A DNA stretch of 64,000 bases from a virus (IMGVR_UViG_3300033073_000492:10991-74990), one strand, 5' to 3'. Positions 5,080 to 5,945 are shown, numbered from the stretch's first letter. The notes: generated by a model from the sequence alone, not told the origin. Program-made: numbers and translations.

Positions 5080-5647
5080 AGGGTGTGTCAGCCTGTGAGT
5101 AGTCAGCTGGGATCCTAGCTCCTTTAACATTGTCATACTCTTTGTAGTAATGTTCATTTTCTTTTACAATTCTAAAATCATCATACTTCAAACTAGCGAA
5201 CGTTACTTCCTCTTTCTTTAACATATCACAGATAATGTATGTTGTTGTACAAGGTGCTGAGATAGTTTTGAATGGACTATGTTTAAACTCGTTCGCTTGC
5301 AATGCCTTATGCATAGGGCTATTGGGTGAAAATATAATACGGGTTATGCCTAGCTTTTGATTGCGTAGTCGTATTTTATCGTAGATTGTGAGTGTTGTCA
5401 AGGTTGCTTCGTTCTCGTCATTGATGGTGACCAATGCGTTTTTGAACTTGATTGAACCTTTAGTGCTGGGATTGTCAGGAGTTTCTTTTGTACTCCACGG
5501 TACTTGTGCGTCAACGTGATTGACATAGTACGTTTCGCCATGAAATTTTAAGACCCACATGGGAATGGTCTCGTCTTGTAAGTGTGCTTTGTTAAAGTGG
5601 AAGACTACCTCTTTACATGCAAATTCAATCTATTGATTAGTTGTCAT
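5066..5647 (-). CDS. Hypothetical protein with in-frame TAG at codon 6 (MTTNQ*IEFACKEVVFHFNKAH...)
   Basis: AGGAG SD plus ATG at 5647, in frame (87 nt) with the ORF-track start at 5560; the only stop between them is TAG 5630-5632. Confidence 0.7.
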
Positions 5648-5945
5648 AAGTTTCTCCTGTGAAAATATAATCACCTTTCGGTGTGTTGAGTACAGTTTGT
5701 AATTGTACTCTATCTATATATCTCAACTTCAACCACATTTCTTCTTTTGTGGTTTCAGTTTTGATATAAATCTTATGCGAATCTGTGATAACTTCCTGTC
5801 CAGTATCGTAGTCACACCATCCACTGTCGTTTTCATATGTTACATACGGTCTTTCAACATGGCAGAATAGATTAGAACTATCTAGCCATTCGAAATCTTC
5901 GTCAGTGTATGGTGATGGTAGATACCAGACTTTAGTAGTTATCAT
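5637..5945 (-). CDS. Hypothetical protein (102 aa)
   Basis: ATGA-coupled ORF. Confidence 0.7.
   Translation of the reverse strand: MITTKVWYLPSPYTDEDFEWLDSSNLFCHVERPYVTYENDSGWCDYDTGQEVITDSHKIYIKTETTKEEMWLKLRYIDRVQLQTVLNTPKGDYIFTGETYDN

Follow-up and report, generated by a model that had tools for sequence, protein, structure and literature searches.

What becomes of a gene whose reading frame opens behind a strong Shine-Dalgarno (SD) sequence and an ATG, runs into an amber codon a few codons later, and then continues in the same frame for another 187 sense codons? This question is raised by a gene on the minus strand of IMGVR_UViG_3300033073_000492:10991-74990, a stretch of DNA of 64,000 nucleotides (nt) from a large freshwater phage, which we analyzed as a whole and refer to as the window. 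The window comes from an IMG/VR virus record of 74,990 bp with an estimated completeness of 22%, and its contig is T4-like, with gp55- and gp47-like genes and a permuted transfer-messenger RNA (tmRNA). We consider it likely, with a probability of roughly 0.8, that the 187-residue protein is made only when a phage-encoded tRNA with the anticodon CUA reads the UAG at codon 6; this reading rests on comparative sequence analysis. The elements concerned are the following, and we call the gene the gated gene.

5657-5652, minus strand: Shine-Dalgarno sequence AGGAGA with a 6-nt spacer to the ATG, read directly

5647-5645, minus strand: start codon ATG, the first codon of the leader

5633..5647, minus strand: leader of five codons, ATG ACA ACT AAT CAA (MTTNQ), read directly

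5632-5630, minus strand: in-frame amber codon TAG at codon 6, with A as the +4 base

6939-6863, minus strand: tRNA with anticodon CUA and encoded CCA, 43.4 bits with Rfam RF00005 (cut-off 29)

Read from the reverse complement, the gene consists of the SD, the ATG, four more sense codons, the TAG and a long open frame that ends at TAA 5068-5066, the frame being unchanged across the TAG. The locus had been singled out by a prediction made from the sequence of the window (the original prediction), which described a strong SD and ATG followed by an amber codon at position 6, and a frame that passes beyond it into the annotated open reading frame (ORF). Both descriptions are borne out, the first at 5657-5630 (minus strand), the second over the full 187 codons. 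The annotated start at 5560, which the same prediction held to be poorly supported, is the ATG chosen by ORF callers (MWVLK) and lacks a good SD; between the TAG and this ATG there is no ATG, GTG or TTG, that is, 23 codons pass without a canonical start. The first 11 nt of the leader overlap the end of the upstream gene. That gene terminates at TAA 5639-5637, ahead of the TAG, which therefore lies outside it, as had been claimed, and is not forced by the overlap. No ORF of at least 40 amino acids on the opposite strand covers the TAG position.

The same anatomy is found throughout the relatives of this gene. Three IMG/VR scans yielded 158 distinct homologous phage loci, and in 151 of them an SD and ATG, a short sense leader and a TAG stand directly before the conserved domain. 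The TAG is present in all of the 80 closest relatives (80/80) and is kept down to approximately 40% protein identity. The relatives also have an SD ahead of the leader ATG, and the leader, usually 1-3 codons after the ATG, varies among them in both length and sequence. The TAG falls at codon 3 in 97 loci, at codon 4 in 16, at codon 5 in 28 and at codon 6 in 4. The stop of the leader is never TAA or TGA in the 158 loci; the gated gene's own terminator is TAA in 55 and TGA in 22 of 77 complete copies, and TAG in none. The base that follows the TAG is A in 139 loci, G in 11, C in 1 and T in 0, hence a purine in 150 of 151. A purine after UAG is reportedly a context favoring amber suppression, as Bossi and Roth and also Miller and Albertini are said to have found; in our loci this signal is confounded by a conserved Ile at the same position. 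The original prediction had also asked which residue occupies the TAG site in homologs, where Gln would point to CAG>TAG; no sense residue is conserved at the position, so that CAG>TAG is not inferable.

One of these homologs belongs to a cultured virus, the Rhizobium phage RHph_I1_18 (MN988519), where it reads ATG AGT GAG TTC ATG TAG AAC GAA... (L001 2977-3225). It occupies 11224-10994 of MN988519, is unannotated and sits between a methyltransferase gene and a 'tRNA-Pyl(cta)' at 10988-10911, this annotated tRNA(cta) lying 12 nt past its stop.

The seven loci without a TAG open with a Met where the TAG would sit (MIELACK, MVEIACK, MEMVCK and others), that is, one residue before the motif 'IE/VE...ACK'; as expected from the original prediction, they do not start at the methionine of MWVLK. 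Because they begin exactly at the TAG site, the leader would serve only as a device for initiation and gating. On a quick maximum-likelihood tree, midpoint-rooted, these seven loci are scattered: parsimony counts 5 changes, well-supported branches force at least 2, and one TAG-less copy is sister (support 99) to a TAG-bearing copy. The scatter fits an old TAG that was lost several times, with the direction of change left unset by the midpoint root. In two sister copies (L233 and L245, ~3990-4635, one TAG-less and one TAG-bearing), the nucleotide identity of 75% is confined to the gene, the flanking sequences being unrelated. Judging from such comparisons, the gene seems to be a cassette that passes from one phage genome to another.

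The tRNA accompanies the gene closely. Of the 151 TAG-bearing loci, 128 have a CUA tRNA no more than 4 kb away (110 called by ARAGORN and 18 found with a covariance model), and whole-record searches located one 5-100 kb from the gene in ten further records. The 113 CUA tRNAs called by ARAGORN all share the strand of the gene; the 18 matches of the covariance model are likewise on the plus strand of their loci. In 103 of 110 TAG-bearing loci the tRNA is found upstream; the median distance is 434 nt, with ~130 nt or less in 19 loci. It is often the sole tRNA in 8 kb (85/158 loci). Each of the five TAG-bearing records that are at least 90% complete (G003, G004, G008, G010, G016) contains a CUA tRNA. 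In the complete 364-kb genome G003, an array of 28 tRNAs occupies 232-238 kb and the CUA tRNA stands alone at 339.5 kb, 4.7 kb upstream of the gated gene and ~100 kb from the array. No conserved protein neighbor of the gene is comparable to the tRNA, the next commonest being found in 48 of 156 loci and at variable positions. In the window, the tRNA(CUA) is the record's only tRNA and lies on the same strand as the gated gene, 1,216 nt upstream of its ATG; the original prediction, which had placed a co-oriented CUA tRNA about 1.2 kb upstream, was thus right, and the Rfam score listed above agrees with its identification. The link between tRNA and gene may represent a functional partnership or shared descent as a cassette.

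The minimum-energy fold of the window tRNA is a cloverleaf, and its anticodon loop, UU-CUA-AA, has 7 nt with the CUA centered (U33, purine 37). We built a family covariance model (R1) from 53 CUA tRNAs, which gives the window tRNA 81.2 bits, the window sequence having been in the training set. In the alignment of the 53 sequences, 96.9% of the cells are paired and compensatory changes are seen at 15 of 19 pairs, which none of 500 shuffles equaled; by this comparative measure, the tRNA family is under structural selection. Invariant or nearly so are G1-C72, C2-G71, (G3-C70), A73, the encoded CCA and C34-U35-A36, the latter without exception in the 53. The near-universal U8 is not conserved (A, G or U) and the D-arm varies widely in length, which probably explains why ARAGORN misses ~15% of the family. 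Among the 31 other tRNAs of G003 there is no close paralogue, the best matches being ~70% and including long-arm tRNAs, so that the amino acid carried by tRNA(CUA) is not inferable from them. An ORF of 146 codons (6739-7179, minus strand, like the tRNA(CUA)) remains open across the tRNA gene; its 80 codons ahead of the tRNA are a possible small gene, and the look-alike ORF 'family' over the tRNA in 24 loci probably just mirrors the conserved tRNA sequence.

Our ORF surveys counted 40 TAA, 25 TGA and 3 TAG stops in the window's contig (G000), and 246 TAA, 145 TGA and 35 TAG stops among the 426 ORFs of its complete relative G003. The pattern of an SD and ATG, up to 10 codons, a stop and an ORF occurs in 1 of 68 ORFs of G000 and in 1 of 426 of G003, each time in the gated gene, which is far beyond chance. 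Elsewhere in the genome the standard code applies and TAG is a stop, in agreement with the original prediction: TAG ends the gp55-like gene (55870-56763, plus strand, 297 codons) at 56761-56763, and is followed by a GAGGGG/CCCCTC hairpin and then by a gp47-like gene. We rejected a general recoding of TAG; the only other long frame joined by a TAG is this gp55 end with the in-frame gp47, and G003 has no excess of ORF pairs joined in frame by a TAG. The gp55-like gene and the gp47-like metallophosphatase gene share one frame (55870-57837), and read-through of the TAG would fuse them. This arrangement looks accidental, being expected in about 1 in 8 cases by chance.

We also looked for a decoding apparatus of the phage's own. 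We searched the window's record and four relatives, of which three are 97-100% complete, and found no synthetase of the GlnRS type or of the PylS/PheRS type. Since ARAGORN labels the CUA tRNAs 'tRNA-Pyl', we considered a pyrrolysine system and rejected it, as PylS (PF01409) has no match in G000 (22% complete) or in the same four relatives. No release factor 1 or 2 (RF1, RF2) of phage origin was found in the searched records, only short ArfB-like GGQ domains in two relatives. The corresponding RF-1-domain ORFs of these two complete relatives have ~186-189 codons (G003:C1:231273-231590 and G016:C1:149489-149803, both on the minus strand). That of G003 adjoins the 28-tRNA array, and G003 also encodes a permuted tmRNA; the ArfB-like ORF and the tmRNA together point to a sizeable ribosome-rescue toolkit.

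We propose that the UAG locks the gene and that the tRNA is the key to it, UAG being a stop elsewhere in the genome. Ribosomes would initiate at the strong SD-ATG (5647), and at the UAG the phage tRNA(CUA) (6939-6863) would outcompete RF1 and insert an amino acid. The tRNA would presumably be charged by a host enzyme, since no synthetase was found in the searched phage records. When the tRNA is absent, RF1 would release a five-residue peptide and no protein would be made, because no start codon follows for 23 codons past the UAG. With the UAG placed in a short and variable leader, the identity of the inserted residue would be irrelevant, and a failed read-through would cost only a peptide of 2-5 residues. 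The anatomy of the gene, the conservation of its TAG, the linkage to the tRNA and the uniqueness of the arrangement in the genome are shown by the sequences; from them we infer a charged tRNA that decodes this UAG, and a gate that controls when, or how much of, the protein is made. A candidate promoter motif lies upstream of the run from the tRNA to the gene:

7289..7296, minus strand: CATAAATA, a candidate motif resembling a T4 late promoter, upstream of the tRNA-to-gene run

In 32 of 150 relatives, NATAAATA is found in the 80 nt that precede the TAG, compared with 1.7% of background windows. In the window, the motif of this kind nearest to the gene (7296) stands ahead of the tRNA, so that the tRNA and the gene may share a late transcript.

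Several observations weigh against this proposal. The anticodon stem of the window tRNA is weakened by A27.G43 and A31.C39, which leave 3 clean pairs, and because of these two mismatches ARAGORN does not call it; A31.C39 is common to its closest relatives. The CUA tRNA was not found in a few fragmentary records and in one 59%-complete record. Conversely, a CUA tRNA still accompanies at least 5 of the 7 homologs without a TAG, either close by or at another place in the record, and the tRNA may therefore have a role besides this codon. The expectation of the original prediction that TAG and CUA tRNA would co-occur is thus upheld by the TAG-bearing relatives, which keep both, and is qualified by some of the TAG-less homologs, which still stand beside the tRNA. 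Backup stops after the TAG-terminated genes of G003 gave no signal, which suggests that suppression is weak, brief or tolerated. Finally, the codon after the TAG is AUU, AUC or AUA, weak initiators, in 127 of 151 loci, and some re-initiation is possible there.

This last point favors the alternative that survives best, which we nevertheless regard as improbable. The TAG would terminate a mini upstream ORF, ribosomes would re-initiate on the adjacent AUU without any suppressor, and the tRNA would be linked to the gene for some other reason. The overlap of the leader ATG with the upstream stop is what coupled operons show, and stop-start coupling is common in T4-like phages. Re-initiation leaves the exclusive use of TAG unexplained, however, given that TAA ends ~58% and TAG ~8% of the genes in these genomes, and it does not account for the linkage to a CUA tRNA on the same strand. 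Moreover, a non-initiator codon follows the TAG in 24 of 151 loci (ACT, AAC, AAA, AAT or CAC in 13; GTA, GTT or GTC in 11). RHph_I1_18 has TAG AAC, and the window itself offers no canonical start codon over the 23 codons past the TAG.

Next in rank, and in our judgment a poor candidate, is the use of the UAG as a sensor of RF1. Of the three stops, only UAG depends on RF1 alone, and the early in-frame stop of prfB acts as a sensor; similarly, host near-cognate tRNAs could read through the UAG of the gated gene whenever RF1 is limiting or inhibited, and the phage tRNA would not be involved. The strict conservation of TAG fits the specificity of RF1. Against it stand the cognate CUA tRNA, which is the most conserved neighbor of the gene and is carried by all five near-complete TAG-bearing genomes, and the failure to find a phage RF1 or RF2 other than the two ArfB-like GGQ domains.

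A third alternative concerns the protein, which would start at the internal Met (5560, MWVLK), the frame upstream being a relic. This Met is the first canonical start past the TAG, and many database gene calls begin there. Whether the 23 codons before it encode protein can be judged from the conservation and the predicted fold of the two domains:

5390..5629, minus strand: N-terminal all-beta domain, residues 1-80 after the TAG (IEFACKEVVFHFNK..PMW..STKETPDN..TKGS), from homology and AlphaFold2 (AF2)

5069..5389, minus strand: C-terminal domain, ferredoxin-like beta-alpha-beta-beta-alpha-beta with an acidic tail, from the AF2 model

The N-terminal domain takes in these 23 codons. Using tblastn, the post-TAG translation matches Rhizobium phage RHph_I1_18, Sinorhizobium phage Phosso and Agrobacterium phage Atu_ph07, and the matches begin at residue 4-10, well before M24, the Met at 5560. 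In an alignment of 60 full-length relatives, E2, V9, F10, F12, N13, K14, H16, L17, D19, T21 and P23 are invariant, as is M24-W25 itself. From this alignment, M24 is evidently kept as a piece of a P-M-W motif and not as a start. The AF2 models have a predicted local distance difference test score (pLDDT) of 87.9 for the whole protein and of 94.5 for the N-terminal domain alone; residues 2-13 (2-12 in the model of the N-terminal domain) are modeled as the first beta-strand, and the 23 residues upstream of M24 as strand 1 and a short helix, with pLDDT of ~90 or more. Because these residues are conserved and belong to the fold, a start at M24 would remove part of it. The original prediction had taken the 23 codons for real protein, and the FHFNK segment is indeed conserved in all homologs as part of the fold. 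With M24 in an invariant motif and lacking an SD, with residues before it among the most conserved of the protein, and with TAG-less homologs that begin upstream of it, an internal start is highly improbable. Least of all can the TAG be put down to an assembly or sequencing error or to a pseudogene, for which a single in-frame stop in a metagenomic contig 22% complete might speak: it recurs in 151 independently assembled loci from many samples, including a cultured phage, so that the error which the original prediction wished to see excluded is ruled out, and the downstream ORF is intact and strongly constrained.

The C-terminal domain is missing from stand-alone short forms such as that of RHph_I1_18. 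Sequence and profile searches of Pfam, PHROG and the PDB with the protein gave no useful match, and a protein atlas search gave scores below 0.9. Compared with the PDB, the model of the N-terminal domain reached Z scores of 3.5 or less, with mixed OB-like and ADP-ribosyltransferase-like hits of which none was convincing; that of the C-terminal domain had only generic ferredoxin/ACT/RRM-like matches (Z of 5 or less), and the full-length model had no convincing match. Solely uncharacterized phage proteins were matched in a BFVD search. The all-beta domain is thus new-looking as far as its model goes. A relation to T4 Cef ('modifier of suppressor tRNAs') was considered and rejected (hhalign probability 0.1%, no PHROG match). 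In public gene calls, many members of the family are truncated at M24 and some are translated with TAG as Q.

The persistent linkage suggests that the gated protein may work with UAG decoding or with the tRNA. Going one step further, the tRNA(CUA) and the gated protein could form a two-part module, a mobile cassette among large phages, in which the protein acts on UAG decoding; we put this forward tentatively and think it rather doubtful. It would fit a linkage that outlasts the loss of the TAG, stand-alone N-domain forms that abut the tRNA, and a gene that moves between unrelated flanks. The protein might antagonize RF1, handle the suppressor tRNA or buffer the effects of read-through. The early UAG would then be a sensor that ties the dose of the protein to the level of suppression, a 'suppression homeostat' with a logic like that of prfB. 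Of related interest is G013 (362 kb), the one complete TAG-less genome, where a degenerate tRNA-like sequence (3540-3608) lies ~400 nt upstream of a short homolog (L091); its loop is CUCUAAA, its D-arm is truncated, and it ends in CACTA rather than CACCA. This remnant may be a decaying suppressor tRNA left after the TAG was lost.

Phage suppressor tRNAs are usually framed as agents of whole-genome recoding or as unexplained 'orphans'. In code 15 phages (crAss-like, Lak and others), TAG is read as Gln and the phages carry suppressor tRNAs; recoding has been proposed as a regulator of expression in recoded phages (Borges et al., bioRxiv 10.1101/2021.08.26.457843). The likeness to our gene is that a phage CUA tRNA is proposed to read in-frame UAG in a standard-code host, and a phage-encoded suppressor tRNA is present here as well. 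However, code 15 phages have many in-frame TAGs across late and lysis genes and have dropped TAG as a stop, whereas here a single gene per genome carries a single TAG, within codons 3-6 of a variable leader and in physical linkage with the tRNA, and other genes still end in TAG. Neither a synthetase nor a release factor that could form a 'code-change module' was found in the searched records. We therefore rejected membership in code 15, as G000 and G003 have one gated gene each and TAG ends 35 of the 426 ORFs of G003.

Other systems share single traits with the gated gene. In prfB, which encodes RF2, there is also an early in-frame stop at which competition determines the full-length yield; there it is a +1 frameshift at UGA that senses the gene's own product, whereas here the frame is unchanged, the codon is UAG and a dedicated tRNA would compete. 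The read-through proteins of Q-beta (A1) and of murine leukemia virus (MuLV, gag-pol) likewise depend on a viral stop decoded as sense for a needed protein. There, near-cognate tRNAs of the host read a stop that closes a functional ORF, and two products arise in a fixed ratio; in contrast, our stop follows a leader of 2-6 codons, the outcome would be all or nothing, and the virus supplies the cognate tRNA. Closest in architecture are engineered amber gates, in which an orthogonal tRNA(CUA) controls a UAG-bearing target through one early UAG. Unlike them, the present arrangement is natural, ancient and widely inherited, and no dedicated synthetase was found in the searched records. Orphan suppressor tRNAs in standard-code phages have been reported as possible precursors of recoding; the carrier is of the same kind, and here the tRNA comes with an identifiable, conserved and linked target codon. 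In the literature we found papers on recoded phages and no description of a module of a tRNA(CUA) and a gated gene.

An orphan tRNA thus has a long-conserved target in these phages, one UAG a few codons into one gene that is usually nearby. If the proposal is true, this would be the simplest natural case of a gene switched on by a changed codon meaning, and such a module could be a first foothold for fuller recoding. It also has a consequence for annotation: public databases overlook the gene (RHph_I1_18), begin it at the internal Met or apply code 15 to it. That the cultured Rhizobium phage RHph_I1_18 carries the module makes the idea directly testable.

In two jumbo rhizobiophages, Phosso and Atu_ph07, the domain forms the C-terminal part of a fusion and has no TAG; a PTH2 peptidyl-tRNA hydrolase is encoded two genes upstream. 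The lone CUA tRNA of Phosso (446731-446806, L330) is far from the domain gene, and in Atu_ph07 the best match to the tRNA model (430713-430787, L331) has the anticodon UCA, of the opal-suppressor type. Nothing convincing was found within 3 kb when we looked for gated genes beside these lone suppressor-type tRNAs. In the window, a rubrerythrin/ferritin-like gene (6318-6815, minus strand) sits between the tRNA(CUA) and the gated gene, and a PP-loop ATPase gene with a QueC/ThiI/tRNA-methyltransferase-like N-terminus (3376-3975, minus strand) lies ~1.1 kb downstream of the latter.
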